From the NCBI GenBank assembly GCA_016840085.1, contig JAEOTA010000032.1, forward strand, positions 1 through 31,960: a stretch of DNA of 31,960 nt, read 5' to 3'. This document shows, in pieces, positions 3,179 to 25,602 of this stretch (position 1 is its first letter; the number at the start of each line of letters is the position of its first letter). The translations under genes and the position numbers were made by a program. This DNA comes from Promethearchaeota archaeon (GTDB taxonomy: Archaea; Asgardarchaeota; Lokiarchaeia; Sigyniarchaeales; SOKP01). The notes under the pieces are model-generated. The model worked only from the letters and a program-made list of their open reading frames with translations, was not told the origin of the DNA and searched no databases.

Positions 3179-3925
3179 TTACATATCATCGGGAAGTAAT
3201 TCTGCGTTAGTAATTACTAAACCCGGTCTGATAACAACTTTATATTTTTTAGATTCTAAAAAGTTTTTTATTTCCTTTCCAATCTTTTCTAATTTATCAA
3301 TACTTTCATTATTAGAAATAGTATACACTATCAATGATTTTGCAGATTCCATTTCTGCTCTATTTATCTCATTTGCATGTTTAATTAATATATGATCTGC
3401 TCCTGTAATTTCAGCAATTTTTCTAATCTCTTGTTCTAAAGAGCTAAAAGTAAAAAATTCTCTATTTTTGCTCGCGATCTTCTCTGCTAAAATTTTTTCT
3501 AAGTTCTCTCTCGAATTCTTATCATAAAAAGCAGTTAATTCTTGAGTACAAATCATTTTATACTTCCCAGAAATTAATTCTTCCTTTTGGTTAACAAACT
3601 CTATTAACTTACTATAATATTTTTGGTCAATTTTTTTAAAGTTCTCAATATTTCTTACTAAATCCGTTAACTTATTAATTAAATCATAGTAGAATTTTAA
3701 AGTAGATTTAATATTTAATTTATCCCTCATTTCTTTTATTTCAGGATAGAATTTCCTAAGAATAAGATTGATTTTTTTATTACATTCAGCACAGATTTTA
3801 GCAATTTCATTAATATTTTTAACAGATTTTTTATTTAGTTGATTAAGTAAAGAACTATCTAAAATTGCTAAATCTTCAAAAATCTCGTTAATTTTATTGG
3901 TGTATTTTTTTTCGATATAGCTCAT
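3179..3925 (-). CDS. Hypothetical helical protein, co-oriented upstream of proS
   Basis: 248-aa ATG-initiated ORF with no recognisable motif. Confidence 0.8.
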   Translation of the reverse strand: MSYIEKKYTNKINEIFEDLAILDSSLLNQLNKKSVKNINEIAKICAECNKKINLILRKFYPEIKEMRDKLNIKSTLKFYYDLINKLTDLVRNIENFKKIDQKYYSKLIEFVNQKEELISGKYKMICTQELTAFYDKNSRENLEKILAEKIASKNREFFTFSSLEQEIRKIAEITGADHILIKHANEINRAEMESAKSLIVYTISNNESIDKLEKIGKEIKNFLESKKYKVVIRPGLVITNAELLPDDM

Positions 3926-4043: not shown

Positions 4044-5246
4044 TTAGAGAAAGAAAATTTTCACAGCTGTCATAACAGCCCCACTTATTATAGGGATTGT
4101 AAAATTGTCATTTATCCCTATTGGTAACACCTCAATTAATACCGCAGCAATTCCACCGGATATAAGCAAGATTAATGGAATATCTAATATAAAAAAAAGC
4201 ATATATCCAAAAATAATAACAGCCCCAATGTTTGCAAGACTACCCTCAAGCGTTTTCTCAAATAATTTACGACGACCATATGCTAATCCGAAGACTTTAG
4301 CAAACATATCACCGAAAACAAGAAACATCAACGAAGTTATAGCAATTTCCATCTCAAAAAAGAGTAATATTAAAAATGTAGAAATCAAAAAGATTGTCAT
4401 TGATGAAAATCTTTTCTCTTCTCCCTTTCTAAAAATTGCCGTGGTCTTTTCAGTTAATAACACATTGGTTTGTTTATTAAGAAATCTGAAGATGTCTAGA
4501 CCAATAAAACATAAACATACAATACCTATGACAGAAAGACCAAGTTGAACATCAATAAAATAAAATATAAGAAACAATAGAGACACTGGTCTTATAGCAA
4601 CTCTCCACCAGCTAGCCAGAAAAGCCTCATCAGTTATCACTAATTTTTTTTCTGTTATTACTTTGATCGTCCCAATGGAAGCAATATGAATAAGAATTAT
4701 CACAAAAAATAGATTAAAACCACTTGTAGGGTATAGTATAAACACTGAAAATCCTAATAAGGGAAATAAAACCATTGGTAACAAACTACCTGCTTTAGAA
4801 ATGTAGGTAAATATTGCTACAAGTATTAATAAAAATATCACTACATAAAATAATTGAAACCCAACAGTAAGATAATTCACAAGATAAAAAAGTAGTATTC
4901 CAGTTGCAGTTGCATTTCCTTGTCCACCACGAAATCGTAAATAAAAGGGAAAAACATGCCCAACTATTGCTGTTAATCCACTAATTTGCATGAAAATAAA
5001 ATTTGCTCTCAAATAATAAGCAATCAATATAGCTAATAAACCCTTCAATGTATCATACAATGCGGTGGGAATAGCATACGTAAGTCCTAAAACTTTAAAT
5101 GCATTAGACGTTCCAGGATTACGGGTACCCTCTTCTCTTACATCTATACCTTTCAATTTTCCAAAAAAATAAGCAGGTAAAATTGATCCAAGTAAATAAC
5201 CGATGATAATACTAAGAATGCCAATAAAAATGTCAATTCCATCCAC
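4044..5246 (-). CDS. plsY: PlsY-type glycerol-3-phosphate acyltransferase fused to a CTP-dependent lipid kinase domain (dolichol kinase/Dgk1/phytol kinase family)
   Basis: N-half: GYLLGSI, DVREEGTRNPGTSN, DTLKG, GHVFPFYLRFRGGQG. C-half: FGDMFAKVFG, KTLEGS, NDNFTIP. GTG start preceded by an AAGGTGA Shine-Dalgarno. Confidence 0.88.
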   Translation of the reverse strand: MDGIDIFIGILSIIIGYLLGSILPAYFFGKLKGIDVREEGTRNPGTSNAFKVLGLTYAIPTALYDTLKGLLAILIAYYLRANFIFMQISGLTAIVGHVFPFYLRFRGGQGNATATGILLFYLVNYLTVGFQLFYVVIFLLILVAIFTYISKAGSLLPMVLFPLLGFSVFILYPTSGFNLFFVIILIHIASIGTIKVITEKKLVITDEAFLASWWRVAIRPVSLLFLIFYFIDVQLGLSVIGIVCLCFIGLDIFRFLNKQTNVLLTEKTTAIFRKGEEKRFSSMTIFLISTFLILLFFEMEIAITSLMFLVFGDMFAKVFGLAYGRRKLFEKTLEGSLANIGAVIIFGYMLFFILDIPLILLISGGIAAVLIEVLPIGINDNFTIPIISGAVMTAVKIFFL

Positions 5247-5451
5247 ACTTTTTCACCTTAAAAGATATTAATCTATACTTTATTTTTAATAATAAAAATA
5301 TTTCTAAAAAAGTATGATTTAAAAGGAATTAGAAGAAAATTGCTTTAAGTATGAATTTAATATATTTTCAACTTTGATAAGAAGAATAGAAAAAAAAGTA
5401 ATAAAAAAAAGTTTGTTCTAATTGTTCAAATTTTTGCTTAAACTAATTCAA

Positions 5452-6689: not shown

Positions 6690-8411
6690 TCAATGGTATA
6701 AATACATGAAACGTTCCATATAATATAAGAATATTTGGTTATAATAGCCTGTAAAATAAACATCGGCGGCATGTCCGGCTAAAGGCATCCATAAAATAGC
6801 ACATTCATTATTTCCTTTAGCAAGGTAAGAATTTCTTATATTTTCAGATATACTGAAATAATTGAGGATATCATGAGTGCCTTGAAAGATAAGACAAGGT
6901 GGGCTACTTTTCTCGATAATTTTTTCGGGATTCTTGAATTCATCACTTCCACTGATTCCAAAAATAACCATTTGACCATTTGCAGGATAAAATGGTATTA
7001 ATCCTTTTATTTTCAAGCTTTCATTAAAAATATTTGTATAGTTTCCACTTGCGATGGCTAGGGCTACTGCACATGTCAGATGACCTCCAGCAGATCCTCC
7101 ACTTATGAATACAGAACCCAAATTTGCACCATAAATATTAGCATGATCAGCAAGATAGTTAGTGAATATACCAATATGTCGCATCATATCATCTATATTA
7201 AAATTCCCCTTTTTATAATCAGGAGTTAGCGGATCTAATTCAAATAAAGGATTACGGTCGATCCCATATTGAATATCAAATACCACATATCCTTGCCCTG
7301 CAAAATATTTATTCATCTGTAGCATATTCATCATTCCTTTATCACCTGAAACCCAACTACCTCCATGGATTCTAATTATTGTTGAATTTTCCCCCGGGAG
7401 TTCTTTCCTTCTATTCAATGGCATGTAAGCATCAAAATAAAGTCTTATTCCATCATCATCATAGAATAAAATATTTTTATCAATTTCACAGTTTTTAGGC
7501 TCTGTACCTAGATAATATCCAGTAAGTGTAAAAGGGGTTTTCAAAAAGAATCGGTTTGCTTCAGAAGGAATTTTAACGTGCCAATTGGTACCAAATGCGT
7601 TAGTAAACACTTTCTCAGCACTATATACACTGGAATTAGACAGAAATAACGGCATCAATAACCACCCAGATACAAAAATGCCAATAATAGCTGTTATATA
7701 GAATTTTTTCGTGGTTCTTTTGTGTTGTTTTAGTTTTAGAAGCAAAATTGTATTGGCTAAAAATATAATTGAAAAAAAGATTCCAAATTGAGAAGAAATT
7801 ATAGCAATAAAGACAGATATTACTTTAAATGAACCAAAAACACCTACAATAGCAAATATAATTCCTATGATAAAAGTAATTCTGGACATAATTATTAAAA
7901 TTTTTCTCAGTGATTTTTTAATTAGTAAGATTCTTATTCCATTTCTTTTACTAAATGATTGTCTAAATAGTTCCAAATTGCTATTATATAAGCATTTAAT
8001 GTTAAATAAAGCAAAAGAAATTCCATAGATTAAAACTCCAAAATAGCTGAAATAGATCATAGTATAAGCTCCGAAATTTTCAGTAAAATTATTCGAGTAT
8101 GTTGAAGAAAGGAGTAAATTTCCTAACATTATTGATAATATAGCAATAATGATAAGAATCAATTGCACATAACTAATTATAGTTGTCTTTGGTCTTAGTA
8201 TGTTTCTTTTATGAAGGTTAAAATATACAAATAAAAGATTTTCAAACAATGTAATAGTTATAATTACTCCAATAAGATCCCAAAATACTGAGTTAGATGG
8301 TTGTAGTATATATAATAATCCGAATACAATACATAATAAATTTAAGATAATTGATAAGCAGCTAGTCAGCTTAACATTTCTTAAATTTATTAAATCTTTC
8401 TTATTCTTCAT
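6690..8411 (-). CDS. Polytopic membrane-anchored alpha/beta hydrolase (HSL/family IV esterase-lipase)
   Basis: About 7 N-terminal hydrophobic segments, then the IHGGSW oxyanion motif, the GGSAGG nucleophile elbow, QGTHD and AGH. Confidence 0.88.
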   Translation of the reverse strand: MKNKKDLINLRNVKLTSCLSIILNLLCIVFGLLYILQPSNSVFWDLIGVIITITLFENLLFVYFNLHKRNILRPKTTIISYVQLILIIIAILSIMLGNLLLSSTYSNNFTENFGAYTMIYFSYFGVLIYGISFALFNIKCLYNSNLELFRQSFSKRNGIRILLIKKSLRKILIIMSRITFIIGIIFAIVGVFGSFKVISVFIAIISSQFGIFFSIIFLANTILLLKLKQHKRTTKKFYITAIIGIFVSGWLLMPLFLSNSSVYSAEKVFTNAFGTNWHVKIPSEANRFFLKTPFTLTGYYLGTEPKNCEIDKNILFYDDDGIRLYFDAYMPLNRRKELPGENSTIIRIHGGSWVSGDKGMMNMLQMNKYFAGQGYVVFDIQYGIDRNPLFELDPLTPDYKKGNFNIDDMMRHIGIFTNYLADHANIYGANLGSVFISGGSAGGHLTCAVALAIASGNYTNIFNESLKIKGLIPFYPANGQMVIFGISGSDEFKNPEKIIEKSSPPCLIFQGTHDILNYFSISENIRNSYLAKGNNECAILWMPLAGHAADVYFTGYYNQIFLYYMERFMYLYH

Positions 8412-8640
8412 TACACTTCTAAATCTAGCTAAATGACTAACCCTATTATATTAATACTACAGGGAGTAGCGATATCTGATAGTTAAATATATTCTTATAC
8501 TTTTTGATTCCTATATGAATCAGGGTCTTAAGCTTAATATACTAATGAAAATCTTAGTATAAAAAATTATAAAAAAAGATAAATTTATATAGGGAAAGTA
8601 AAGCATACTGAAATTGTTCTAAAAATTCAACACATTGGAC

Positions 8641-8748
8641 TTGGTATATAAAACGTTACATGGGATACGTGCATATTTGGTTATAATAACCTGTGAAATA
8701 GAAATCTAAGATATGTCCTCTAAAAGGCATTTATAAAATAGCACAGTC
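8641..8748 (-). pseudogene. Decayed 3'-end fragment of a paralog of the neighbouring esterase
   Basis: Translates as DCAIL*MPFRGHILDFYFTGYYNQICTYPM*RFIYQ, versus ECAILWMPLAGHAADVYFTGYYNQIFLYYMERFMYLYH at 6690-6806. Confidence 0.85.
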
Positions 8749-10029
8749 TTATTTTTTAAGGAGAGGTAGTATTTGGGGGCCATTAGGTAAAAATAATATA
8801 GAAGAATCTGCTCCATATTTCTTTAAACAACTTTTAATAGCGTCCTCAACAGTTTCAGCATACTTCATGCCAATATTTCCTATTTCATTTTCATTCAGTT
8901 TAGATACAATAAAGATTTCTGCTTTCAACAGAATACGGGCTAAAATTTGGATTTCCCATTGATCAGTGACTATAATCTCTTTATTAAGGATCTTTTTGTA
9001 GATCTCATTTGGTTGCATTCCAGAAAAGATTAATTCTTTAAACTTATCTTGACCTATGCCAATACCATCAGCACATTCATTTACAGAGATAATTGTTCCA
9101 TTTTTTTTAACAGCAATTTCACCTATAGCCATACTTTTAACTGCTTGGTATAAATTTAGATCTAAAGGATATCCTCCATTTCCACAAACAACTATATCAT
9201 ATGGCTCTTTTATTTCTTTGAAGATATGTTTCAACTGATAATTTACAAGTTTTTCGTGAGGTTCCTCGAGATTTCCCGTAGCTACCTGAACTATATCGTG
9301 TTGTTCGTTAATACATACATTTACAATGAAATCTACTCCTATTTTTTTCGAAATTTCAATAGAGTTTCTGTGTAGTGGATTTTCTTTAAAAATGCCAAAT
9401 TTCGCATAAGGAGATGCAATATTTTCAGCAGAATGATTATTTTGGATGGTTTCAGCTCCCGCAATTCCTGGAATTATCGACTTACGACCACCAGAGAATC
9501 CCATAAAAAAATGAGGTTCAACATATCCAGTTAAAATCTTCAAATCTGCTCCATAATAATGTTTATTTATCAAAATTGGATGATCATCCATGGTTGCTCC
9601 TATATTGATTAATGAATTTTCATCAATTGCGATGTGATCAATTACTCTAATCCTATTTTTAAGATTATTTCCTAAGATTCGCTCTAATTCCTCTTTATGG
9701 GAAATACGATGTAATCCTGTGGCAATTAGGATCATTATTTGATTGTCCTTAATTCCATATGAGCTTAATTCCTCAATTAGAGCTTCAAGAATAAAATGTG
9801 AAGGGACAGGTCTCGTTGCATCACTCACAACAACACACACAGTCTCCAAATTTATCTTATTTTGGATAATTTCTTCAAGAGGAGGGCATCCAATTGGATT
9901 ATTTATGGATTTCTTTATTTCTTTTTTAAGATTTTTGATAGCATTTTGTCTTTCAGGACGAAATATTGTTACATTCCAAGATGGATCAAGCTTTATTTCT
10001 AAACCTTCCTTACCATAATCGAATTTCAT
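8749..10029 (-). CDS. larA: Nickel-pincer-dependent lactate racemase family protein
   Basis: Motifs SDATRP, ATGLHR, EPHFFMGFSGGRKS and GYPLDLNLYQAVK. Confidence 0.93.
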   Translation of the reverse strand: MKFDYGKEGLEIKLDPSWNVTIFRPERQNAIKNLKKEIKKSINNPIGCPPLEEIIQNKINLETVCVVVSDATRPVPSHFILEALIEELSSYGIKDNQIMILIATGLHRISHKEELERILGNNLKNRIRVIDHIAIDENSLINIGATMDDHPILINKHYYGADLKILTGYVEPHFFMGFSGGRKSIIPGIAGAETIQNNHSAENIASPYAKFGIFKENPLHRNSIEISKKIGVDFIVNVCINEQHDIVQVATGNLEEPHEKLVNYQLKHIFKEIKEPYDIVVCGNGGYPLDLNLYQAVKSMAIGEIAVKKNGTIISVNECADGIGIGQDKFKELIFSGMQPNEIYKKILNKEIIVTDQWEIQILARILLKAEIFIVSKLNENEIGNIGMKYAETVEDAIKSCLKKYGADSSILFLPNGPQILPLLKK

Positions 10030-10035
10030 AGTTAT

Positions 10036-11775
10036 TCACGATTTTTTGTGTATAATCTCTCGAGCTTTTTCAAATATCTCATGAGTTTTAACTCCAGCGG
10101 GGCATTTAGTATGACAAATTGCACAAGAAGTGCATGTATGTATTATATCAGTTATTAATTCGTTTAATTCTAAATCACCATGAACTAATCCATTTAATAT
10201 GCTTAATCTTCCTCTTGGACTATAGGATTCAATCATATGATAAATTCTTGAAGGGCATGTTGTAATACAAAATCCACATCTCATACATTTTAATTCTAAA
10301 ATATTATCGGAACGATTTTTTAAACTTCTTAATATGCTTGATTTTGCCAAAGAACGTTGATCACCCTTTCCAATTCCCGGATTTAAAATCATTTTTGGAT
10401 CAAAAAGCTTTTTAACTTTAGACATTAAATCAACCACCTTAGAACCATGTTCAAGTTCAAGAAATGGCGTTTTAATTTTACCTATTCCATGTTCTCCCGT
10501 AAGACTACCCCCTACAGGAATAATTATTTTCTTATATAAATAATCTATAGCAGTTTGAAAATCTTTTACATCTTGTTTGTCGTTTTCATTAAATAAAAAA
10601 GTAGGATGTAAATTGCCTTCCATATGGCAGATAGTTGCCACTAATAAATTTTTGGCATGTATTTTTTCAGGAATTTGTTCAATTTGCTTGATGACATCTG
10701 CAAAATGAGTTATTTGAATTGTACAATCTTCTACACATGTACTTGGTCTTATTCTAGAAAGGGCGGGGAGATTTGCTTTTCTAGAAAGGATTAACCGTTC
10801 TCTTTCCTCTTCATTTTTGGCAATTTTATGAAATAGTGGGCTTTTTTGAATTATTATATCAAATAAAATCGAGAAGTTTTCTTCTACTTCTCTTTCAGTA
10901 ACGCCATCTACTTCTGCTAATAACACATAACCATTTGGAAAATCTAAAAATTCACCACCCAAATACTCTGAAACGGCTTTTAAAATTAATTTATCCATAA
11001 ATTCTAATAGATTTGGAACAATACCTTTACGTCTAATTTCTAATACAGCATCTTGTAATTTATCAACATCTTCGAAAATAAATAGACCTAATTTTTTTGT
11101 TTTTGGTAATGGTCGAATTCGTAAACCAATATTCGTAATAACTCCAAGAGTTCCTTCAGAACCAATAAATAAATCTTTCAAATTATAAGAGGATACAGAT
11201 TTCAATACATCTGCACCCAAATTTAAGATTTGTCCATTAGGTAACACAACTTCCAAATATAATACATAGTTTTTAGTAACACCATACTTAAATGCCTGAA
11301 TTCCTCCAGCATTTGTCGCAACCATCCCTCCTATAGTAGCAACTGAGCTTGAGCCAGGATCAGGTGGAAAAAAATAACTATACGGTTTTAATACCTCATT
11401 TAAATCATCGCATATTACCCCAGGTTCAATTTCAACTAAATTATTCTCAATATCAATTTTAATTATATTATTCATTTTAGCTAAATCTAAAACGATACCA
11501 TTATAAGGTGTCATAGAGCCTCCAGACAAGCTTGTGCCGCTCCCTCGAGGAGTTACTGGGATTTTATTGTCATTTGCTAATTTTAAAATCTCAGAAATTT
11601 GCTCAACCGTTTTGGGTAATACTATTAAATCAGGAATCCATTCTTTTTCAAAAATTGTGCCCCCAAAACCATAAGTCCATCTAATTACAAAACTATCAAA
11701 ACAAGAATTTTCTCCAACTATTTCTGTAAATTTTTCAATTAGAGAAGTTGATACTTTATTATAAGTAATTACCAT
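10036..11775 (-). CDS. FAD-linked 2-hydroxyacid oxidoreductase (GlcD/D-lactate dehydrogenase family) with a fused C-terminal 2x[4Fe-4S] domain
   Basis: PRGSGTSLSGG, PDPGSS..TIGGMVATNAGG, GSEGTLGVIT, GEHGIG and LNPG, followed by CMRCGFCITTCP and CTSCAICHTKCP. Confidence 0.92.
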   Translation of the reverse strand: MVITYNKVSTSLIEKFTEIVGENSCFDSFVIRWTYGFGGTIFEKEWIPDLIVLPKTVEQISEILKLANDNKIPVTPRGSGTSLSGGSMTPYNGIVLDLAKMNNIIKIDIENNLVEIEPGVICDDLNEVLKPYSYFFPPDPGSSSVATIGGMVATNAGGIQAFKYGVTKNYVLYLEVVLPNGQILNLGADVLKSVSSYNLKDLFIGSEGTLGVITNIGLRIRPLPKTKKLGLFIFEDVDKLQDAVLEIRRKGIVPNLLEFMDKLILKAVSEYLGGEFLDFPNGYVLLAEVDGVTEREVEENFSILFDIIIQKSPLFHKIAKNEEERERLILSRKANLPALSRIRPSTCVEDCTIQITHFADVIKQIEQIPEKIHAKNLLVATICHMEGNLHPTFLFNENDKQDVKDFQTAIDYLYKKIIIPVGGSLTGEHGIGKIKTPFLELEHGSKVVDLMSKVKKLFDPKMILNPGIGKGDQRSLAKSSILRSLKNRSDNILELKCMRCGFCITTCPSRIYHMIESYSPRGRLSILNGLVHGDLELNELITDIIHTCTSCAICHTKCPAGVKTHEIFEKAREIIHKKS

Positions 11776-12019
11776 ATTAAAAATAGATTCTTTTAAGCCT
11801 TACTATATATTTTTAAATGAGTTTAGTTATATTTTATTCTTTTAAAAATAAAATTATATCTATTTATAAAGATGAGTTAATAAGGATTAATGATGTTAGT
11901 TAAGAAAATATTTAACAATTCATAGAGGAATTTTTTCTTTATAACAATAAAAAATTTAAGAGTAGTTAGCTTTTTTATTCATGATAAAACAACAACAATT
12001 AATACTCAAAGGAAATATT

Positions 12020-12316
12020 ATGAAACAGAATGATAATAAAACTAAGGATTCATTAAATAGAAAAAACTTCGTACCCTCAAATTATTTAAATCAATTAATC
12101 CAAAATTTATCGAATCCTCGGTTTTTAGGCTCAATTCATTTAAAAAAGGAAATGAACCCTAATTATAGTCAAGTTGAAAATTTGATTTCAAATGAACGCG
12201 AATTAAAGATGACAAAAACATTAAAAAATGTAATATTAAATCCAATAACAAAAATTTTGATAATTTCTGCTATTATTTTTAATGTAATCTGGTTTCTTTT
12301 AATTTACTTTTTGTAA
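12020..12316 (+). CDS. Small protein with a single C-terminal transmembrane anchor
   Basis: Hydrophilic body ending in ILIISAIIFNVIWFLLIYFL*. The start is either 11981 or 12020; the latter has AGGA upstream. Confidence 0.6.
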   Translation: MKQNDNKTKDSLNRKNFVPSNYLNQLIQNLSNPRFLGSIHLKKEMNPNYSQVENLISNERELKMTKTLKNVILNPITKILIISAIIFNVIWFLLIYFL

Positions 12317-12461
12317 AAGAATAATAATATCAATGATATAGAAAAAACATGGTTATTTTCTTTTTAATATAATATAATAGATATTTTTATTTTTCAAGAT
12401 TAGAATTTATATATTTATTACAATAATTGTAAAATCTATAAGTTAAAAGGTCGACGAACAA

Positions 12462-13934
12462 TTGATTTACGATGTTATAATAATTGGAGGCGGAGTAACA
12501 GGATGTAGTATAGCCCGTACTCTCTCAAAGTATAATATAAAGGTTTGTTTGCTTGAAAAAGAGGGAGAAGTGGCTTCTGGAACAACTAAAGCAAATTCTG
12601 GTGTTGTTCATGCAGGTTATGCATCACCAAGAGAATATATTAAACGATATCTATGTATTAAGGGAAATAAATTATATACTCAAGCAGCCCAGGAGTTGAA
12701 TTTTCCCTTTAAGCGAACTGGATCTTTTGTAGTAGCACTAGAAGATAATCAGATTAAAATATTGGAGAAGGAACGGAAAAAGGGAACAGAAGATGGGATA
12801 CCTGAGCTGGACTTATTATTCGATAAAAAGCAGATAAAAAAAATGGAGCCCAATTTAACCGATGATGTTGTTGGAGTGTTACATGCTCCAACTGCTGGAC
12901 TTGTTAGCCCCTACGAATTAACTTTCGCTTTAGCTGAAAACGCCGCTATAAATGGAGTGAAATTCTTTAGAAATCACGAAGTTGTCAGAATTAAACATGA
13001 AGATTATATCTTTACAGTACGAACATACAAAGGTGAATTTCAAGGACGAAATCTCATTAATGCTGCAGGTCTTTATGCTGCGAAAATTTCAAAAATGTTA
13101 GGTTTGGATTATTTTAGTATAATGCCACGAAAGGGTGAATATATATTATTCGACAGAAATGCTTTACAACTTAACAAAGTATTATTTCCTATAGCTACAA
13201 AAGTTTCTAAAGGGATTCTAGTTTGTCCAACATTACATGGTAATACTTTTGTCGGTCCTAATGCTCAGAATATAACAGATCCAGAAGATATATCAACAAC
13301 TACGGCTGGATTAAAAGAAATTTTGGAAGGAGGGAGAAAATTAATTCCTAATCTCCCTGCAAGAAGTTCCATCAGGAGTTTCGCGGGTTTAAGAGCAGTT
13401 CCAGATACTTATGATTTTATCATTGATAATACCGATGTTTATGGATTTATTAATGTAGCGGGGATTTTATCACCGGGTCTTACAGCTACTTTTGCAATTG
13501 CTGAGAAAGTGGTTGAATTTCTTGAATTACTAGGATTAGAATTGAAAATTAAGGAGGATTACAATCCAAATAGACCGAAACCAGAACGGTTTAAAGATTT
13601 TACAAAAGAAGAGTTAGATAAGAAAATACGAGAAGATCCAGCCTGGGGTAGAATTATTTGTCGTTGTGAAACAATACCCGAAAAAGAGATAATCAATGCG
13701 ATTCATGCGCCAGTTGGAGCAAATACCGTAGATGGAGTAAAGTTTCGGTGTAGACCGGGCATGGGTAGGTGCCAAGGTGGATTCTGTCGTCCACGTGTTA
13801 TTGAAATTTTGTCAAGAGAATTAAATAAATCTTATGAAGAAATTACGAAGAAGGGAGAAGATACTAACATTTTGGTTGGTAAAACAAAGGATTTCATTTT
13901 AAAAAGTGAAAGAAGAGGTGTTAGTGAAGAATGA
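12462..13934 (+). CDS. FAD-dependent glycerol-3-phosphate dehydrogenase-like subunit (GlpA/LhgO family) with a C-terminal BFD-like [2Fe-2S] domain
   Basis: DVIIIGGGVTG, TTKANSGVVHAG, PRKGEY and SPGLTA, then IICRCE...RPGMGRCQGGFC. Confidence 0.9.
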   Translation: MIYDVIIIGGGVTGCSIARTLSKYNIKVCLLEKEGEVASGTTKANSGVVHAGYASPREYIKRYLCIKGNKLYTQAAQELNFPFKRTGSFVVALEDNQIKILEKERKKGTEDGIPELDLLFDKKQIKKMEPNLTDDVVGVLHAPTAGLVSPYELTFALAENAAINGVKFFRNHEVVRIKHEDYIFTVRTYKGEFQGRNLINAAGLYAAKISKMLGLDYFSIMPRKGEYILFDRNALQLNKVLFPIATKVSKGILVCPTLHGNTFVGPNAQNITDPEDISTTTAGLKEILEGGRKLIPNLPARSSIRSFAGLRAVPDTYDFIIDNTDVYGFINVAGILSPGLTATFAIAEKVVEFLELLGLELKIKEDYNPNRPKPERFKDFTKEELDKKIREDPAWGRIICRCETIPEKEIINAIHAPVGANTVDGVKFRCRPGMGRCQGGFCRPRVIEILSRELNKSYEEITKKGEDTNILVGKTKDFILKSERRGVSEE

Positions 13935-15229
13935 AAATATATGAAGTAGATGTTGCTGTAATTGGTGGTGGTTCTGCTGGTTTAGCTGCTGCTATAGTTG
14001 TTAAAAAAGCTGATTTAAATGTTATAATACTAGAAAGAGATAAGGAATTGGGAGGAATTACTCTCCAATGTATTCATAATGGATTCGGTCTTCATGAGTT
14101 TAAAGAAGAATTAACAGGTCCTGAATATATCCAAAGATTTATTGATCAAGCTAAAGAATTAGAAATTCCTTATAAATTAGATACAATGGTTATTGAATTT
14201 ACTCCAGATAAAATTATTTATGCTGTAAATAACAGAGAAGGTCTTATTGAGATTAAAGCTAGAGCTATAATCCTGGCTATGGGATGTCGAGAAAGAACAA
14301 GGGGCGCAATCAATATCCCTGGCTTTAGATCTGCTGGAATTTATACTGCTGGACAAGCACAAAGATTTGTGAATATCGAGGGGTATTTGCCTGGAAGAAC
14401 TTTTGTTATTCTAGGTAGTGGAGATATTGGTATGATCATGGCTCGTCGCCTTACATGGGAAGGCTGTCAAGTCAAAGCAGTGGTCGAAATACAACCCTAT
14501 GTAAGTGGATTAATAAGAAATCAAGTACAGTGTTTAGATGATTATGGTATCCCGCTTATAACTAGTTATACTGTTACAAAAATTCATGGTAAAGACAGAG
14601 TAAAGGGAGTTACAATTTCCAAAGTTGATAGAAACTTTGATAGAGTTATAGGCTCTGAAAAATTCATAGAATGTGATACATTACTCTTATCTGTTGGTTT
14701 AATCCCCGAGAATGAATTAACCAGAGATGCAGGAGCCCATATCTCCGAAATGGGAGGACCAATTGTAGATAATAATTTAGAAACTACTGTTGAAGGGGTA
14801 TTTGCATGTGGTAATGTATTACAAGTCCATGATCTAGTTGACCTCGTGACTGCAGAAGCTAAAAGAGCTGGATTTAATGCTGTTGAATATGTCAAAGAAA
14901 GATATAGGAAAAAGATAGAAAAAAAAGAAATAATCAAATGTGTAGCAGGTGAAAATGTTAATTATGTAAAACCTGATTTTATAAATAAATCAGATTTATC
15001 TAAGGATATAATTTTCACATTTAGAGTAAAACAACCAGACAGAAGAATTCAAATACAATTTAAAGATGGAAAAAATAAAGTAATATACAAAAGAAAGAAA
15101 CTTTATGTTATTCCTAGCGAAATGATTGAATTAAAATTAAATTTAACCGAACAACAAATAGACTCTGATTGTAATAGTTTGGAAATTGAAGTAATACCAC
15201 GTCCAGAAGTTTTAATAGAAGAAGATTAA
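13931..15229 (+). CDS. Pyridine nucleotide-disulfide oxidoreductase (NADH-oxidase-like partner of the G3P dehydrogenase)
   Basis: IGGGSAG, LQCIHNGFG, AMGCRER, GSGDIG and GNVLQVHDLVD; ATGA start-stop overlap with the upstream gene. Confidence 0.9.
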   Translation: MKIYEVDVAVIGGGSAGLAAAIVVKKADLNVIILERDKELGGITLQCIHNGFGLHEFKEELTGPEYIQRFIDQAKELEIPYKLDTMVIEFTPDKIIYAVNNREGLIEIKARAIILAMGCRERTRGAINIPGFRSAGIYTAGQAQRFVNIEGYLPGRTFVILGSGDIGMIMARRLTWEGCQVKAVVEIQPYVSGLIRNQVQCLDDYGIPLITSYTVTKIHGKDRVKGVTISKVDRNFDRVIGSEKFIECDTLLLSVGLIPENELTRDAGAHISEMGGPIVDNNLETTVEGVFACGNVLQVHDLVDLVTAEAKRAGFNAVEYVKERYRKKIEKKEIIKCVAGENVNYVKPDFINKSDLSKDIIFTFRVKQPDRRIQIQFKDGKNKVIYKRKKLYVIPSEMIELKLNLTEQQIDSDCNSLEIEVIPRPEVLIEED

Positions 15230-15251
15230 TTGCATAATGAGGTTTTAAGAA

Positions 15252-15653
15252 ATGTCAACTAAAATAAATGAAGATGAACAGAAACTCCCAGAGGGATTTA
15301 AGGATATAAGATGTATCGTTTGCCCTACAGGATGTTTAGTACATGTTGAAAATGTAAATGGGGAATTGATTATTGAAGGACATTCTTGCAAGAGAGGTGA
15401 GGAATATGCAAGGGAGGAGTTTATAGCCCCAAAACGTATTCTTACAACAACCATGAGAGTTGAAAATGGTTTCCTACCTTTAATTCCTGTTAGATCAAAT
15501 TTCCCACTACCCAAAGAAAAACTCAAAGAAACTTTGAAAGAAATTGCAAAAACTGTAGTTAAAGCCCCGATTAAAATGGGGGATATCTTAATTCAGAATG
15601 TTGTAGGCTTGGATGTTGATATTATAGCAAGTCGAAATTTAATTGAAGTCTAA
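15252..15653 (+). CDS. DUF1667 CxxC metal-binding small subunit
   Basis: CIVCPTGC...GHSCKRG...PKRILTTT; the typical third gene of the G3PDH-Nox-DUF1667 operon. Confidence 0.9.
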   Translation: MSTKINEDEQKLPEGFKDIRCIVCPTGCLVHVENVNGELIIEGHSCKRGEEYAREEFIAPKRILTTTMRVENGFLPLIPVRSNFPLPKEKLKETLKEIAKTVVKAPIKMGDILIQNVVGLDVDIIASRNLIEV

Positions 15654-15751
15654 TAATTTTAGAATTTCTTTTTAAAAATTATTTAATTTTGTGAATAATT
15701 ATAAATAATTTAAGATTTAACTCTTTATCTATATATTATCTTAATAACAAG

Positions 15752-17131
15752 ATGATTTATTTGAATAAAGATGATCTTTTAATTCAATTGGAAAAAATTT
15801 CTGGAATGGATTTTGTTTCGAATAAAACTGAAGATCTCTATATCTATTCCCAAGATCCTGGGGCTTCTGAACCTCGTCCAGTTGATTTTGTGGTATTACC
15901 TAAAAACGTAGAAGAGATCCAAAAAATCATAGAATTAGCAAATAGAGAAAAAATTCCACTTATTCCTATGGGAGGTGGTTTGACGCTTAGTGGTTTAATA
16001 ATTCCTATAAGAGGTGGTATTGTATTAGATCTAAAGAGAATGAACCAGATACTCGAAATAAACGAAATAAGTCGTTATGCTCTCATTGAACCCGGAGTAA
16101 CTACGGGGCAATTACTTGCACATCTAAATGATCACTATCCTGATTTGCAACCAGCAATCCCAGATGCTCCACCCTCAGCAACAGTTACAGGAAATGCCTT
16201 AATCCATGGATCAGGTTATTTATCCCAGAAGTATGGAAATCATGGAAGTATGATCAATGGATTAGAAGTAGTGTTACCGAGTGGAGAAATCTGTAAATTA
16301 GGATCTTGTGCCTTATCTGATTGTTGGTTTACGAGAGGTCCAATTCCTGATTTAATTGGGTTATTTACTAGTTCTTTTGGAACAATGGGAATCATTACAA
16401 AATTATCCTATAAATTATATCCAAAACCAAAAATGAGAGATATGGTTTTTGGATTATGTAAAGATGTAAACAATGTTCCAAAGCTGGTTTCTAAAATTAC
16501 ATATACTGAATTAGCAGAAGATATTCTTCTCGGCAAAGCGGATAAACCAGATTATATGAAAGGTTATGTTACTGTAATGGTTTATATTACTGGAGATTCA
16601 GAAGAAGAATTGGAGTCTAAAAGAAAGATGATTAAACGATTGTATCGTAAAAATGGCGCTCAATTTATGAAGATGCCTGAAAGACTAATGAATATTTTTT
16701 TAGAAAAACCTCAATTTGCTGCTGCTGCTGCTGATTTTAGAAAAGGAGGGGGATTTGAATATGTTGGTTCATTTTTACCCTTAGAAAAAACCCCTGAAGC
16801 AATTGAAAAAGCTACTGCGATTTCAAATAAATACAATATTATTCCCACCCTAATTTTAAGAATTATTGGAAAAGGTCATTGTGTAATGTTCGCTCCCACA
16901 TTTGCGTTTAATCGTGCAGACCCTGCTGATATTGAAAATGCTCGGAATGCATTAGATGAGACTAATAAACTGGTTTTAGAGTTGGGAGGTATACCTTGGA
17001 AAGCAGAATTAGCAGGACAAAAGCTTATCGTCGAAAAGATGGATCCTAATTATAAGAAACTTCTAAAATCAATTCGAAACGTGATAGATCCAAATGGTAT
17101 AATGAATCCTGGAAATTGGGAGGTGAATTAA
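15752..17131 (+). CDS. FAD-binding oxidoreductase (GlcD/alkyl-DHAP synthase superfamily)
   Basis: PMGGGLTLSG, EPGVT, GLEVVLPSGEI, GTMGIIT and DPNGIMNPG. It lacks the GEHG motif. Confidence 0.88.
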   Translation: MIYLNKDDLLIQLEKISGMDFVSNKTEDLYIYSQDPGASEPRPVDFVVLPKNVEEIQKIIELANREKIPLIPMGGGLTLSGLIIPIRGGIVLDLKRMNQILEINEISRYALIEPGVTTGQLLAHLNDHYPDLQPAIPDAPPSATVTGNALIHGSGYLSQKYGNHGSMINGLEVVLPSGEICKLGSCALSDCWFTRGPIPDLIGLFTSSFGTMGIITKLSYKLYPKPKMRDMVFGLCKDVNNVPKLVSKITYTELAEDILLGKADKPDYMKGYVTVMVYITGDSEEELESKRKMIKRLYRKNGAQFMKMPERLMNIFLEKPQFAAAAADFRKGGGFEYVGSFLPLEKTPEAIEKATAISNKYNIIPTLILRIIGKGHCVMFAPTFAFNRADPADIENARNALDETNKLVLELGGIPWKAELAGQKLIVEKMDPNYKKLLKSIRNVIDPNGIMNPGNWEVN

Positions 17132-17133
17132 AT

Positions 17134-18306
17134 ATGGGTACAGAAGTAAAACAGGATTGGAAAGATATTGTTCATAGATGCTTTAGATGTGGCTATTGTA
17201 AATTTACTCATGAATATTCTGATTTCAATTGTCCAAGTTATAAAAAATATCGATTTGAAACATATAGTACCGGGGGTAGGATGTGGCTTATATTTGGAAT
17301 AATTAATGGTGATCTTGAATGGAGTCCGAATTTGGCAAATGTATTATATGCCTGTTCTACGTGTGGAAATTGTACAGAGAATTGTAGATTTGAAAAATTT
17401 AATGATTTTCTTGTTGACATAATTGAAGCAGCTCGAGCTGAAGCTGTTAAAAATGGATTTTGTCCAGAAAAACAGAAAGCTTTATTAGAACGTACAGAAA
17501 ATCCAGAAAATTATAATCCATATGGTGAAAAGAATTCTGATAATCAAGAGTTAAAAAAGAAGTATAACTTACCAGACAAAGCAGAATGGGTTTATTTCAT
17601 AGGATGTACCTCTAATTATCGACAAAAAAACTTAAGAGATGCTACAATACGATTTTTAAAAAAAGCAAATGTAGATTTTACATTAATAGATGAGCATTGC
17701 TGTTGTAGCCCAATTATTCGAACAGGTCAAATAAATCCTGTAAAAGATTTTATGGATTACAATATTACGCATATTAAAGATGCAGGTGCTTCTAAGGTTA
17801 TAACTTCTTGTGCTGGGTGTTATCGTACAATAAAGAAAGATTGGTTAAAGTTTGGTGCGGATTATGATTTTGAGGTATATCATACTGTTGAATTAGTTAA
17901 ACAACTATTAGATGAGGGACAATTAGAAATCAAATCAGAATTTAATAATACAGTAACTTATCACGATCCCTGTCACTTAGGACGTCATACGGGGATGTAT
18001 GAAGTTCCAAGAGAAGTATATAAAAAAATCCCGGGAATACAATTTGTTGAGATGCGAAGAAATCGAGAGAATGCATGGTGTTGCGGAGCAGGAGGAGGTG
18101 TTAAAATAGGTTATCCTGAATGGTCAGTAGAAACTTCAAAAGAAAGATTAGAAGAAGCTAAAGAAACAGGTGCAACTGTGATATCTTCAATATGTCCATT
18201 CTGTAGGACAAATTTGCAAGATGCAAATGATAAATATAATATGGGTTTTGAGGTATTAGACCTATTAGAAATTTTGGATAAATTAGAAATAAATATAAAT
18301 AAATAA
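17134..18306 (+). CDS. GlcF/HdrD-like Fe-S oxidoreductase (ferredoxin-type motifs plus two CCG domains)
   Basis: CFRCGYC, CSTCGNCTENC, EHCCCSP, YHDPCHLGR and CCGAGGG; GGAGGTGA Shine-Dalgarno before ATG 17134. Confidence 0.92.
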   Translation: MGTEVKQDWKDIVHRCFRCGYCKFTHEYSDFNCPSYKKYRFETYSTGGRMWLIFGIINGDLEWSPNLANVLYACSTCGNCTENCRFEKFNDFLVDIIEAARAEAVKNGFCPEKQKALLERTENPENYNPYGEKNSDNQELKKKYNLPDKAEWVYFIGCTSNYRQKNLRDATIRFLKKANVDFTLIDEHCCCSPIIRTGQINPVKDFMDYNITHIKDAGASKVITSCAGCYRTIKKDWLKFGADYDFEVYHTVELVKQLLDEGQLEIKSEFNNTVTYHDPCHLGRHTGMYEVPREVYKKIPGIQFVEMRRNRENAWCCGAGGGVKIGYPEWSVETSKERLEEAKETGATVISSICPFCRTNLQDANDKYNMGFEVLDLLEILDKLEININK

Positions 18307-18356
18307 AACTTCTAAAAAAAAATTTAATTTTTTATTTTATTATTATTCTAATTTTT

Positions 18357-19376
18357 TTAGTAATTTAATTCTTCTCCTAACGCAAGTCTACATAAGTCGC
18401 TTAATAAATAATTTTTTAATCCCTTTCTTTCCACTTTTGAACCCAATGATTCTTTACAAAAAGGGCAACTATATACACATGCCTCAGCGCCATTATCAAC
18501 CATATCTTTAACGTTTCTATTTTGAGTAGACCTTACTAAATTGCTTTTACCAAGTGTAGGGAATGCTGCTGCGCAACATAACGCATTTTCTCTATCGTAC
18601 TTTCTAGCAACTCGTTCAACTCCAATTAAATTACAAATTTTATCTGCTAACTTATCTATTTTAGGTAAAAAACGATTAGAACAAGATCTCTGATATGCTA
18701 TTTTCATACCAAGCTTTTTAATCTCTGATTCATGGTCTTTTAAATAATTATGAAGATATTTATAAATATGAATTGGTTTGAAATCTTTTGGAAGTTCTAT
18801 GTTATTACGGGGACAATAAGATGTGTAAAATCCATAACACTCATCGTGAAAACAAATCATTTCCTTAATCCCTTGTTTCTTGATATTATTTAGTATGATA
18901 GGAGCTCTTTCTCTAATAACCGAATCTCTTGCATAATGATGATATACTAAGTTGCAAAAATAAGAGAGTCCACTAACATATTGCAAGTTTTCAAATAATT
19001 GACCCTCCATATTTTTAGCATTTGTTCTAGGGAAAGCACATTTATTTAAAACTGGTTTTTCAGAATCAATTTCTTTTAATCTTAACTCATCATGGGGTTT
19101 ATACATATTGATTGTAGCTTCTAAAATTTTTTGATTTATGTCAAATGTATTGAATTTTTCTTGTAATTCTGTTATTAAATCAAATGGATGCGAACTGTAC
19201 GGGCAATATTCATCACATGCGAAACAAGTAACACATTCTTTTAAAACGAATGAATTTTCTCCATTAATCATTTTTTCCATTTCCATCCTTGCTGTCTCCT
19301 TGTCAATATCCATCCATTGACATCGCGTCAAACAGTCAATATTTTTGCATTCTGAACAATTAGATTTATCAAACAT
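18357..19376 (-). CDS. Fe-S/CCG-domain (HdrD/GlcF-like) protein with divergent CCG motifs
   Basis: CSECKNIDCLTRC, CVTCFACDEYCP, HDECY, YQRSCS, ALCCAA and CPFC. Confidence 0.85.
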   Translation of the reverse strand: MFDKSNCSECKNIDCLTRCQWMDIDKETARMEMEKMINGENSFVLKECVTCFACDEYCPYSSHPFDLITELQEKFNTFDINQKILEATINMYKPHDELRLKEIDSEKPVLNKCAFPRTNAKNMEGQLFENLQYVSGLSYFCNLVYHHYARDSVIRERAPIILNNIKKQGIKEMICFHDECYGFYTSYCPRNNIELPKDFKPIHIYKYLHNYLKDHESEIKKLGMKIAYQRSCSNRFLPKIDKLADKICNLIGVERVARKYDRENALCCAAAFPTLGKSNLVRSTQNRNVKDMVDNGAEACVYSCPFCKESLGSKVERKGLKNYLLSDLCRLALGEELNY

Positions 19377-19527
19377 TTTTTCATCAATATTTAGTACTTT
19401 TATGTTTTAAGATTGAAATATCTAGTTTGTGATTCCAATATTGTGAAAACGTTTTTAATTTTATTAAAATAAGTATAATAAATCTATACAAAAATAAAAT
19501 AAACATACTTTTAACGAATGATAAAAG

Positions 19528-20688
19528 ATGGAAAGTATTATTCCTAACTTAAATGATAGGGATTTAGCGTTTAAGGAAGCAATTGACAATATAATTTCAA
19601 ATGAGGTTGTTCCTTTCATAGATGAAGTTGAGCAAGGAAAAATTGATATCTGGGATGTGCTCCGTCAACTGGGGAAACATGGATTAATAGGGATCACATA
19701 TCCAAGGGAATTTGGGGGGTATGGTGGAACATATAACCAAGAACTCCTGATGACGGAAGCACTCTGCTATCAAAGTTATCCTATGGATATGTCTCGAGGT
19801 TCATCGACTTATCCTGCATCATTAATCCGGATATTTGGTAAGACCAAATTACTTCGAAACTATATTGATCCACTTGTAAAGGGAGAGAAAATTGGATCTT
19901 TTTGCTTTACTGAACCTGATGCGGGTAGTGATCTCTCGAGAATGAAAACTATTTATGAAAAAGATGAGAAAAATGATGAATTCATTCTTAACGGAGAGAA
20001 GAGATTTATCGTTAATGGAAGCGTAGCTGACACTCTCGTTGTATATGCACGAAATGGGGCGTTCATTATTCAATCAGATTGGGATGGTTTTGAAGTTATA
20101 GAGGAATATTCTATGATGGGTCTTCATGGTCTTCATCTTGGACATTTGAAGTTTGACAACGTTAGAGTTCCGAAAGAGAATGAACTTTATTATAGGGAGC
20201 CTAAACCTTCTACAGAAGGTACTAGAAAGAGGAGGACAGAAGCAATATCAAGTATGCAGCAATTTCTTGCTCCTGAAAGAGCTATGATGGCTTTACAAGC
20301 AATTTGTGTTGCTAAGAGAGCATTGGACGAGGCTATTCGTTATTCAAGAGAACGAGTTCAGTTTAATAGACCTATAAGTGAGTTTGAAGGAATTAGTTTT
20401 AAAATTGCTGAAATGGCTACTAATTATGAAGCAGGGAAAGCCCTAGTGCAAAAATCTTTACAAAATATGAATGATGGTGCTCTTGCCGCAATGGCAAAAC
20501 TTTTTGCTTGTACGAATGCTTTTAAGATATGTGATGATGCCTTACAGGTTTTAGGGGGAATTGGTTATACAAATAAGTACCCTGTTGAGAGATGCCTTCG
20601 AGATATCAGATTATCGCGGATTGGGGGAGGTACAGATGAAATAATGAAATATATAATACAAAAAGATATTTATAAAAAGTTAAAATAA
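19528..20688 (+). CDS. Acyl-CoA dehydrogenase
   Basis: FCFTEPDAGSD, LNGEKRFI, RVQFNRPISEF, ALQVLGGIGY and RIGGGTDEI. Confidence 0.95.
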   Translation: MESIIPNLNDRDLAFKEAIDNIISNEVVPFIDEVEQGKIDIWDVLRQLGKHGLIGITYPREFGGYGGTYNQELLMTEALCYQSYPMDMSRGSSTYPASLIRIFGKTKLLRNYIDPLVKGEKIGSFCFTEPDAGSDLSRMKTIYEKDEKNDEFILNGEKRFIVNGSVADTLVVYARNGAFIIQSDWDGFEVIEEYSMMGLHGLHLGHLKFDNVRVPKENELYYREPKPSTEGTRKRRTEAISSMQQFLAPERAMMALQAICVAKRALDEAIRYSRERVQFNRPISEFEGISFKIAEMATNYEAGKALVQKSLQNMNDGALAAMAKLFACTNAFKICDDALQVLGGIGYTNKYPVERCLRDIRLSRIGGGTDEIMKYIIQKDIYKKLK

Positions 20689-20818: not shown

Positions 20819-21277
20819 ATTCCTGAACTGGATCAAATTTACAAAGTCCATAAAAACCTATATATAGGAGCTTATTGGCCACGATTAAATTTTAAACGGT
20901 TTAAAGAAATTGGTATAACAGCAATTGTAAATTTGATGGAAGAAAACCTTTATAATCCGACCCATTTAGGCTTTTCATATTTACATAAGGGTTTTTCTGA
21001 TGATACTTACCCACCGCATGAATATTTGGATGAAATTTTAAGTTTTATTGAGGTCCATCTAAAAAACAGTGGAAAGGTTTTAGTACACTGTTCTATGGGA
21101 GTCTCGCGAAGTGGAGGAATAATTGCTGCGTGGTTATTAAAGGAAAATCCAAGTTGGAGTTGGAGGGACACAATTTCTTATATTGGAAAATCTAAATTCA
21201 TAGCACCAGCGGTGGAAATTAGAGAATCTATCCTTGATTATCTCGAAAAAAGTGAACATTATAGAAGACAATATTGA
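20819..21277 (+). CDS. Dual-specificity protein phosphatase (CX5R)
   Basis: VLVHCSMGVSRSG P-loop. The N-terminal DSP motifs (KVHKNLYIGA, GITAIVNL) lie in frame upstream of the track start at 20933, back to ATT 20819. Confidence 0.88.
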   Translation: MPELDQIYKVHKNLYIGAYWPRLNFKRFKEIGITAIVNLMEENLYNPTHLGFSYLHKGFSDDTYPPHEYLDEILSFIEVHLKNSGKVLVHCSMGVSRSGGIIAAWLLKENPSWSWRDTISYIGKSKFIAPAVEIRESILDYLEKSEHYRRQY

Positions 21278-24140: not shown

Positions 24141-24749
24141 ATGTCGAACGTAGCAGTTATACTTCAAATTCTATTTATAACTATTGGGATGTTCATATTT
24201 GGTATCTTGTTTAATAGGATTTTAGGAATAAGCAAAGAAACGATAAATGAGTTTAGAGAAAAAGCTTTAAACCTACAAGAACGTATGAGAAATGCTCAAG
24301 CATTAGGTGATGCTCAACTTATGGTGCAATTACAACGAGAAACGATGCACTTCACTAAACAGATAATGTTGAAACAATTTATTCCTTTATGTTTAAGATG
24401 CTCCATTTTTATTGGAATCTTTGCTGTTTTAAGTTTTATATATACTGATTATGATAGTGGATTGTTGCCTTTCCCACTTTTATTTTTCGGGAGTGGTTGG
24501 TTTGCACTTTACTTTATTTTTTCAATATCTATTTCATTAATAGCATATGGAGTAAAAAGACTTTATAAGAAACTCACTGGTAAAGATATTAGGACTCAAA
24601 AAGATTTACGAGAGTTAATGCAAATAATGTCTCCTGCGCCTCAAAGATCAGGATTCTCTCTTCCAATGACATGGGGCACTTCCAGAAGTATACAGGAAAA
24701 AGATCAACCTGAAGAAAAAGAAAGTTGGAAAAAACGGATCCAAAACTAA
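24141..24749 (+). CDS. DUF106/EMC3/TMCO1-like (Oxa1 superfamily) membrane insertase homolog
   Basis: TM1, a Met/Gln-rich cytosolic coiled coil, TM2, a PFPL loop and the GWFALYF.FS TM3. Confidence 0.75.
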   Translation: MSNVAVILQILFITIGMFIFGILFNRILGISKETINEFREKALNLQERMRNAQALGDAQLMVQLQRETMHFTKQIMLKQFIPLCLRCSIFIGIFAVLSFIYTDYDSGLLPFPLLFFGSGWFALYFIFSISISLIAYGVKRLYKKLTGKDIRTQKDLRELMQIMSPAPQRSGFSLPMTWGTSRSIQEKDQPEEKESWKKRIQN

Positions 24750-25110: not shown

Positions 25111-25602
25111 ATGATTGAGAATAATGATATTAAAAGACAAATGATATTGTATTTTATTTTCGCTGCCCTAATGATACTATTGAATTATTTAATCCAAAAA
25201 TCAAACCAATTATATTTTGCTCCGCTTATTTGTGAGAATTATGGAGATATTGATTTCATCCATCTTTTGTATTGTTCTACAAGCCAATTTAATATGCCTG
25301 AATTGATTGGCTCCATTGTTGCTGTTGGAATTACTTATATTATTAAGTTTTTTCTTGACAAATTCATAGTCTTTAAACAAAAAGAAAAAAAGTTAAAAGA
25401 AACATCAATAGAATTTATAAAATACTTCGGATTTGCTATATTAACCACCATTGAAAATATAGGAATTCAATTCCTTTTAACAAACTTCATTAACACTCCA
25501 TTAGAAATTAGCTTTATAGTTGCATTATCAATTGGATATTTAACAAAATTTTTTCTAGATAGGAAATATGTATTTAATAAGCACTTGAATGATGAAGAAT
25601 AA
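25111..25602 (+). CDS. GtrA-like membrane protein
   Basis: Four TM segments arranged as an internal repeat (KFFLDKFIVF / KFFLDRKYVF), plus EFIKYFGF. Confidence 0.8.
   Translation: MIENNDIKRQMILYFIFAALMILLNYLIQKSNQLYFAPLICENYGDIDFIHLLYCSTSQFNMPELIGSIVAVGITYIIKFFLDKFIVFKQKEKKLKETSIEFIKYFGFAILTTIENIGIQFLLTNFINTPLEISFIVALSIGYLTKFFLDRKYVFNKHLNDEE

Follow-up and report, generated by a model that had tools for sequence, protein, structure and literature searches.

A PlsY-type domain joined to a CTP-dependent kinase-type domain in a Lokiarchaeial genome: a re-specified acyltransferase half that may work on fatty acids activated by its partner

What does a membrane protein do that joins in one chain a PlsY acyltransferase-type domain and a domain of the Dgk1/prenol-kinase type, and how did an archaeon come by it? 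The gene that raises this question lies at positions 4044-5246, minus strand, of the window, i.e. the whole stretch of 31 960 nucleotides that was analysed (contig C20 of a genome of 4.68 Mb, 29.5% GC, 98.8% complete and 7.6% contaminated). It has 400 codons without interruption, starts with GTG and is preceded, at a distance of 6 nt, by a Shine-Dalgarno sequence, AAGGTGA (5253-5259, minus strand, as are all features of the gene given below); a sigma-70 scan stayed at chance level. The reading of the ORF and a full-length structure model (pLDDT 88, pTM 0.82) give about 14 transmembrane helices, with a PlsY-fold domain at amino acids 1-199 (4650-5246) and a Dgk1/prenol-kinase-type domain, of the CTP-transferase superfamily, at amino acids 206-400 (4047-4631). 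This confirms that a single ORF joins the two domains, as an earlier note made from the sequence alone had it. An artefact of frame or assembly is ruled out, the best 120 of 595 homologues being mostly full-length fusions with conserved synteny; naturally split forms are not evident among the homologues, where short matches resemble fragments, and an ORF on the plus strand (4105-4548) is a shadow frame. The dN/dS ratio is about 0.1 for both halves alike when close orthologues are compared, and climbs to 0.2-0.3 against distant orthologues, for which dS is saturated. Purifying selection thus acts on both halves, which rules out a pseudogene or a dead half. At a few loci (L002, L013-L018, L025) the halves are unequal in identity or dS relative to the window gene, e.g. 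dS of 0.13 and 0.47 for L002 and identities of 59% and 72% for L025, which suggests half-swapping among paralogues.

The N-terminal half is matched by PF02660 over amino acids 15-191 with 119 bits (cut-off 24.1), and both phmmer and Foldseek bring up the PlsY of Aquifex (Foldseek probability 1.0 to 5xj5-8); with the whole protein, Foldseek matches PlsY alone. The cut-off of the TIGR00023 equivalog is missed (107.3 bits, below 137.2). Residues were mapped on Aquifex PlsY, in which catalysis is substrate-assisted: no protein base is used and the acyl-phosphate takes the proton, while the intermediate is stabilised by a phosphate hole and by Asn37, a catalytic residue that contacts neither substrate (PMC5700162). 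Thr41 is required for activity, and single mutants of the clamp that holds glycerol 3-phosphate (G3P) keep about 1-25% of it, S35T (17%) and R45K (6%) being partly tolerated (PMC5700162). In our protein, motif 1 (amino acids 40-51, 5094-5129) keeps N43, the oxyanion residue equivalent to Asn37, and has T41, S47 and K51 for Ser35, Thr41 and Arg45. H97 (4956-4958) corresponds to His92 of the phosphate hole, and motif 2, GGQGNA (amino acids 107-112, 4911-4928), keeps the backbone glycines with Q109 in place of Lys104, so that GGQG for GGKG had been read correctly. The residues of the acyl-phosphate hole and oxyanion site are therefore present (N43, S47, H97, G107/G108/G110), whereas the G3P clamp (S35/R45/K104/N180) and His177 are met by T41, K51, Q109 and no HxxN. 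The region of the lost motif 3 is at amino acids 187-198 (4653-4688). HIAS (187-190), previously taken for this motif, is probably misregistered: His187 is found in just 21 of 149 fusions, and in a joint alignment His177/Asn180/Arg183 correspond to G192/K195/T198, which is probably the true register, with some uncertainty, as a low-confidence hhalign run gives a further, different one. On these alignments motif 3 is lost under every register considered.

The same division runs through the family when 149 non-redundant fusions are compared with 83 stand-alone PlsY. Equivalents of His92 (145/149 fusions versus 83/83) and Asn37 (119/149 versus 78/83) are kept, whereas those of Ser35 (22/149 versus 75/83), Arg45 (36/149 versus 64/83), Lys104 (23/149 versus 82/83) and the HxxN motif (7/149 versus 79/83) are mostly gone. 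Counted by site, 139/149 fusions have 9-10 of the 10 residues of the acyl-phosphate-site core and 117/149 have 0-1 of the 5 clamp residues, as against 4-5 of 5 in 74/83 stand-alone PlsY. The position of Thr41 is variable, with T or S in 65/149 fusions only; the PlsY core is decayed in about ten family members, several still with intact kinase motifs, and in forms of about 340 amino acids the motif-3 helices are deleted and both cores retained. Judged by its residues, the PlsY half is not canonical: its acyl-phosphate site has been retained, but the G3P clamp and HxxN are degenerate throughout the family, which speaks against acylation of G3P as the product step envisaged earlier. Since PlsY catalysis is substrate-assisted and needs no protein base, loss of the clamp would remove specificity for G3P but not necessarily acyl transfer.

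For the C-terminal half, each signal of the CTP-transferase fold is modest. PF01148 reaches 18.5 bits, below its cut-off of 24 (E 0.002, amino acids 260-400), and matches the C-halves of 20/61 homologues; PRK11624 matches one of the 61 (E 0.008), and a profile search points to CdsA (E 0.007). The model of this half (pLDDT 96) has as its best two matches among 48 161 solved chains CdsA (4q2e, Z 9.9, rmsd 5.7, 171 residues aligned) and CarS (5guf, Z 7.5, rmsd 3.1, 100 aligned), Z values that are middling for a helical protein. The C-half is a distant member of this superfamily fold. It is not itself a CdsA or CarS, as the KR...KD...PGHGG..DR.D signature is absent and PF01148 stays below the curated cut-off. 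No solved kinase of the Dgk1/phytol/dolichol family is among its profile and structure matches, and none is solved for the related ECs (PMC13397572). Its kinase motifs, GD...K(T/S)xEG...DN, are near-invariant (D313 145/149, G335 145/149, N381 147/149): G312-D313...K317...K331-T-L-E334-G335 lies at 4242-4313, with D313 the likely counterpart of Asp177 of Dgk1, and D380-N381...P385 at 4092-4109. Near-invariant and common to stand-alone kinases are R215, D251, R254, E276, D313, K331, E334, G335, E372, D380 and N381. The two groups part at a clamp, R[K/Q]xxH, which is present in 39/42 stand-alone relatives, a mostly Asgard control, and in 1/149 fusions. In its place our protein has R215xxxR219 (R215-V-A-I-R219, 4590-4604), with Arg at the position of the His in 145/149 fusions; also fusion-specific are S281-S-M-T284 (4395-4406; S281 145/149, T/S284 142/149) and K317 (113/149). 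A model of PfPolK places the R[K/Q]xxH triad next to the hydroxyl of the acceptor (PMC10849223). Arg in place of His suggests an anionic acceptor, and the extra Arg and Ser/Thr would fit a carboxylate; on the other hand, the change may merely offset the loss of the neighbouring Lys216, retained in 32/149 fusions only, and in the nearest stand-alone relative Asn stands in place of the His. The same kinase fold occurs behind an N-terminal domain that by eye is HAD-like in proteins of about 430 amino acids from other Asgard families (L121, L122, L149 and L155).

In the full-length model both catalytic faces are on the K/R-rich side of the protein (22 versus 1), so that the two active sites would share one side of the membrane. 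Prediction of half-to-half packing gave a score of 0.37, where the best control scored 0.00, above a pass mark met by 58/80 solved pairs and 2/110 mismatched pairs; scores up to 0.60 are, however, obtained by only 7 of the 80 solved pairs and by both mismatches that passed. The runs concur in at least 96% of contacts and the partner pLDDT is at least 77. This lends weak support to a packing of the two halves against each other.

The distribution of the fusion bears on its origin. The family forms dozens of clusters at 50% identity, with hosts in WOR-3, Calditrichota, KSB1, Aminicenantes, Poribacteria and Actinomycetota; its ESM Atlas cluster is 73% bacterial. Archaeal contigs also carry it, one from a 0.8-Mb genome in which no GGGPS, PlsX or DegV was detectable. 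The nearest homologues are from Promethearchaeota/Lokiarchaeia, and among 201 Asgard genomes full-length matches are confined to the host family (22 of its 42 genomes), which rules out an Asgard-wide or ancestral gene. When the tree of PlsY halves is rooted on stand-alone PlsY, all fused halves form one clade (100/98) and the Loki copies nest within bacteria, with WOR-3 and Caldithrix (97/95); the full-length tree concurs. A common origin of the Loki and other archaeal fusions is rejected (p-AU 0.003), and so is one of the fusion and stand-alone Asgard PlsY (p-AU 6e-10). The trees indicate a transfer from bacteria that would predate the divergence of the genera of the host family, and the patchy presence there indicates loss or incomplete assembly. 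An Asgard-specific or ancestral lipid route is thus not upheld, and of the proviso in the earlier note that the fusion might be a well-characterised protein acquired from bacteria only the bacterial derivation holds, as we found no characterisation. Any bearing on eukaryogenesis is weak: the fusion is found in anaerobic bacteria and small-genome archaea and, within Asgard, in one family where it is nested among bacterial copies. NCBI labels of some fusion loci as Hod, Thor, Odin or Hermod are probably misassigned, since these loci have Loki synteny. Up to four fusion paralogues occur in tandem, in the order TFB-fusion-248 aa ORF-ProRS; the 248-aa ORF (window 3179-3925, minus strand) has no Pfam match and is near the fusion in 55/78 loci. 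Conserved partner genes were not found in bacteria, nor a conserved lipid operon among the neighbours of the fusion.

Where could the PlsY half obtain an acyl-phosphate? Profile searches of the host genome gave no PlsX, Dak2 or DegV, and PlsX or DegV occurs in 0/42 genomes of the host family, in line with the earlier suggestion that these donors are bypassed; two Dak2 matches inside the family resemble DhaL by score and length. Outside it, DegV is present in 39/43 Asgard genomes with stand-alone PlsY, 37 of which also have Dak2, and true DegV is always accompanied by stand-alone PlsY (39/39 Asgard genomes, six families), a profile that sets one fusion lineage against six others in incomplete MAGs. 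In one of the four DegV-less exceptions PlsY is fused to a PPDK-type phosphotransferase, and DegV is absent from 6/7 non-Loki fusion hosts. It is suggestive that Asgard PlsY usually comes with a phosphate-donating partner, whose place the CTP-type domain would take in the fusion. In the Asgard families f5, f14, f22, f24, f25 and f27 the co-occurrence of stand-alone PlsY, Dak2 and DegV is near-perfect and points to a FakAB-PlsY pathway in these lineages; the highest counts in a genome are 11 matches for DegV and 11 for PlsY. Divergent PlsY fused to PPDK_N and PEP-utiliser domains, about 1000 amino acids long, is found in two other Asgard genomes (L166:3890-6946 and L167:3215-6196), in the former near UbiA, amine-oxidase-like, GtrA and FtsX-type genes.

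The fusion is an accessory gene rather than part of core membrane synthesis, because PlsC and GGGPS are present in 41/42 genomes of the host family. Since PlsX is found in 5/5 bacterial hosts tested and a separate intact PlsY in 4/5 (adjoining a gpsA-like gene in three hosts), it is not a housekeeping enzyme there either. The PlsC of the host genome, whose presence answers another question raised earlier, is a tandem protein of 553 amino acids with HX4D in each domain (G000:C24:1293-2954, or L079:481-2142, minus strand) and a candidate acyl-CoA-dependent double acyltransferase; similar proteins of about 560 amino acids are found in most of the 42 genomes, more universally than the fusion. A search for G1PDH gave weak Fe-ADH_2 matches only. 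The host genome also has six canonical prenol-kinase paralogues, one directly 5' of GGR-like, GGGPS and UbiA/DGGGPS-like genes, i.e. at the head of an ether-lipid cluster (G000:C35:68841-72787), and five, of 340-380 amino acids, elsewhere.

The reading that we favour, to which we would give slightly less than an even chance, is that the fusion is a self-contained enzyme of fatty-acid salvage, whose CTP-type kinase makes an acyl-phosphate that is then transferred to an acceptor other than G3P. The C-domain would phosphorylate free fatty acid in the membrane with CTP, replacing FakAB or PlsX; the unstable acyl-phosphate would move laterally to the adjacent PlsY domain, with its intact phosphate hole and Asn37 equivalent; and, as the least certain step, it would be passed on to a membrane alcohol. 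Such an acceptor (lysolipid, monoacyl- or alkyl-glycerol, or isoprenoid alcohol) is probable because substrate-assisted catalysis would let acyl transfer proceed with no G3P clamp. The C-domain would then be a kinase of fatty acids, CTP-dependent and embedded in the membrane, and would add to PlsX and FakAB a third way of making acyl-phosphate; its product would be channelled inside the single chain to a re-specified PlsY, which would attach the fatty acids as esters to host or archaeal lipids. This identity, with Lokiarchaeia, small-genome archaea and anaerobic bacteria as hosts, we consider nearly, though not quite, an even bet. Consistent with this are the acyl-phosphate core kept across the family while the clamp was lost, R219/S281/T284/K317 where stand-alone kinases have R[K/Q]xxH, and stand-alone Asgard PlsY with DegV as against a fusion family with neither DegV nor PlsX. 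DegV-less non-Loki hosts, equally low dN/dS in both halves, catalytic faces on the same side, cores that survive in the 340-aa forms, bacterial copies free of conserved partner genes and, weakly, the predicted packing point the same way. Production of the donor by the kinase, as first proposed, thus finds partial backing in two independent indirect lines, the residue pattern of the kinase and the DegV/PlsY profile. Against it, characterised members of the kinase fold act on alcohols, and we know of no carboxylate kinase among them. The change of His to Arg may only compensate the lost Lys, the stand-alone control is mostly Asgard with Asn in the closest relative, the Thr41 position is variable and about ten PlsY cores are decayed, and the DegV profile compares one lineage with six in incomplete genomes. 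Moreover, PlsX is present in all five bacterial hosts tested, so that a new donor source is not needed there.

Another possibility, in our view unlikely, is that the kinase is the sole catalyst, acting in salvage on a lipid alcohol or lipid phosphate that the PlsY fold merely binds or delivers. The near-invariant kinase motifs, the subclade with a decayed PlsY half, the variability of Thr41 and of the entire clamp, and a host family that lacks a known acyl-phosphate source would all agree with this; yet a non-catalytic module should hardly keep Asn37 in 119/149 and His92 in 145/149 fusions, six canonical prenol kinases are already in the genome, and the His to Arg swap and the exclusion of DegV are left unexplained. 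Still less probable is that glycerol or monoacylglycerol (MAG) is the acceptor to which the PlsY half transfers the acyl group of an acyl-phosphate from outside, the kinase converting MAG or DAG to lysoPA or PA and bypassing glycerol phosphate. Loss of the phosphate clamp fits such a scheme, the CTP-dependent DAG kinase chemistry is known from Dgk1, and PlsX could be the donor in bacterial hosts, but in the Loki family, as in the archaeal host of 0.8 Mb, neither PlsX nor DegV is found, so that the donor would be missing there, and the alcohol-side His of the kinase is replaced.

The narrow form of the earlier proposal, that the kinase makes acyl-phosphate with which the PlsY half acylates G3P or G1P to lysoPA, and that the tandem PlsC finishes a bacterial-type PA, seems to us rather improbable. 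It shares its donor logic with the salvage enzyme that we favour, T41 and K51 are substitutions that Aquifex PlsY partly tolerates, and PlsY accepts G1P (PMC13400652); PlsC is present and a GlpA-like triad lies 7 kb off (window 12462-15653). However, four to five clamp residues are changed at once where single changes leave about 1-25% of activity, half of the host family lacks the fusion yet has PlsC and GGGPS, and bacteria retain a separate intact PlsY, beside a gpsA-like gene in three of them. For all other explanations together we would reserve only a slight probability.

How does the fusion compare with known systems? With bacterial PlsY (PF02660; Aquifex 5XJ5-5XJ9; PMC5700162) it shares the 7-TM fold, the phosphate hole (His92, GGxG backbone), Asn37 and D-x-x-K-G; it differs in the degenerate S35, R45, K104, N180 and His177, the missed TIGR00023 cut-off, the attached kinase and a clade of its own. 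Yeast Dgk1, phytol/farnesol kinase, PfPolK and dolichol kinase have in common with it the CTP-transferase fold, GD...G...G...K(T/S)xEG, DN and the first Arg, but not RxxxR in place of R[K/Q]xxH, the extra S281/T284, the frequent K317 or the attached PlsY. E. coli Aas combines in a single chain fatty-acid activation and acylation of a non-G3P lipid acceptor, using a PlsC-type domain and an acyl-ACP synthetase; the fusion would act like it by analogy only, the folds being unrelated. To FakA/FakB with PlsY, and to the known PlsY-DegV fusions (PMC5700162), it may be likened in function only, by the proposed making of acyl-phosphate (an unstable compound; PMC5700162) from free fatty acid beside PlsY: it has no Dak2 or DegV domain, and its catalyst would be membrane-embedded and CTP-type instead of a soluble ATP kinase.

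PlsY homologues in Loki-, Thor- and Heimdallarchaeota, as stated in the earlier note, are already published, as PlsY of unresolved function gained from bacteria (PMC6431249, PMC6737245, PMC9385802); they likely include this gene, but a text search of these three papers gave no mention of the fusion, and we found no description of a PlsY-kinase fusion in the literature. Reviews note PlsY without PlsX in Lokiarchaeia, with an unresolved role (PMC9385802), and in a 2026 paper the plsY of Asgard archaea is brought forward as a possible sign of ester lipids (PMC13400652). What is new here is the Arg signature of the kinase half, the DegV/PlsY profile and the rooted trees. What is called 'PlsY' in Asgard archaea is of two kinds: several families have a near-canonical PlsY accompanied by FakAB-like genes, and one Loki-type family has the re-specified fusion with a kinase, which ought not to be scored as an acyltransferase of G3P. 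It is a real variant of two known folds, neither an ordinary PlsY nor evidence for ancestral Asgard ester lipids, and may serve to attach to lipids fatty acids that it has scavenged and activated in a way not yet described. If the kinase does make acyl-phosphate, this would be new chemistry for the fold, and the source of the donor would have a testable explanation in a single gene. The rest of the window contains a catabolic neighbourhood at 6690-20688, partly syntenic in relatives, in which the GlpA-like triad lies together with a membrane esterase, LarA, GlcD-type oxidases, CCG proteins and an acyl-CoA dehydrogenase, followed by genes for EMC3/TMCO1-like (24141-24749) and GtrA-type (25111-25602) proteins, a dual-specificity phosphatase (20933-21277) and a weak IS66 transposase match (27673-29082).
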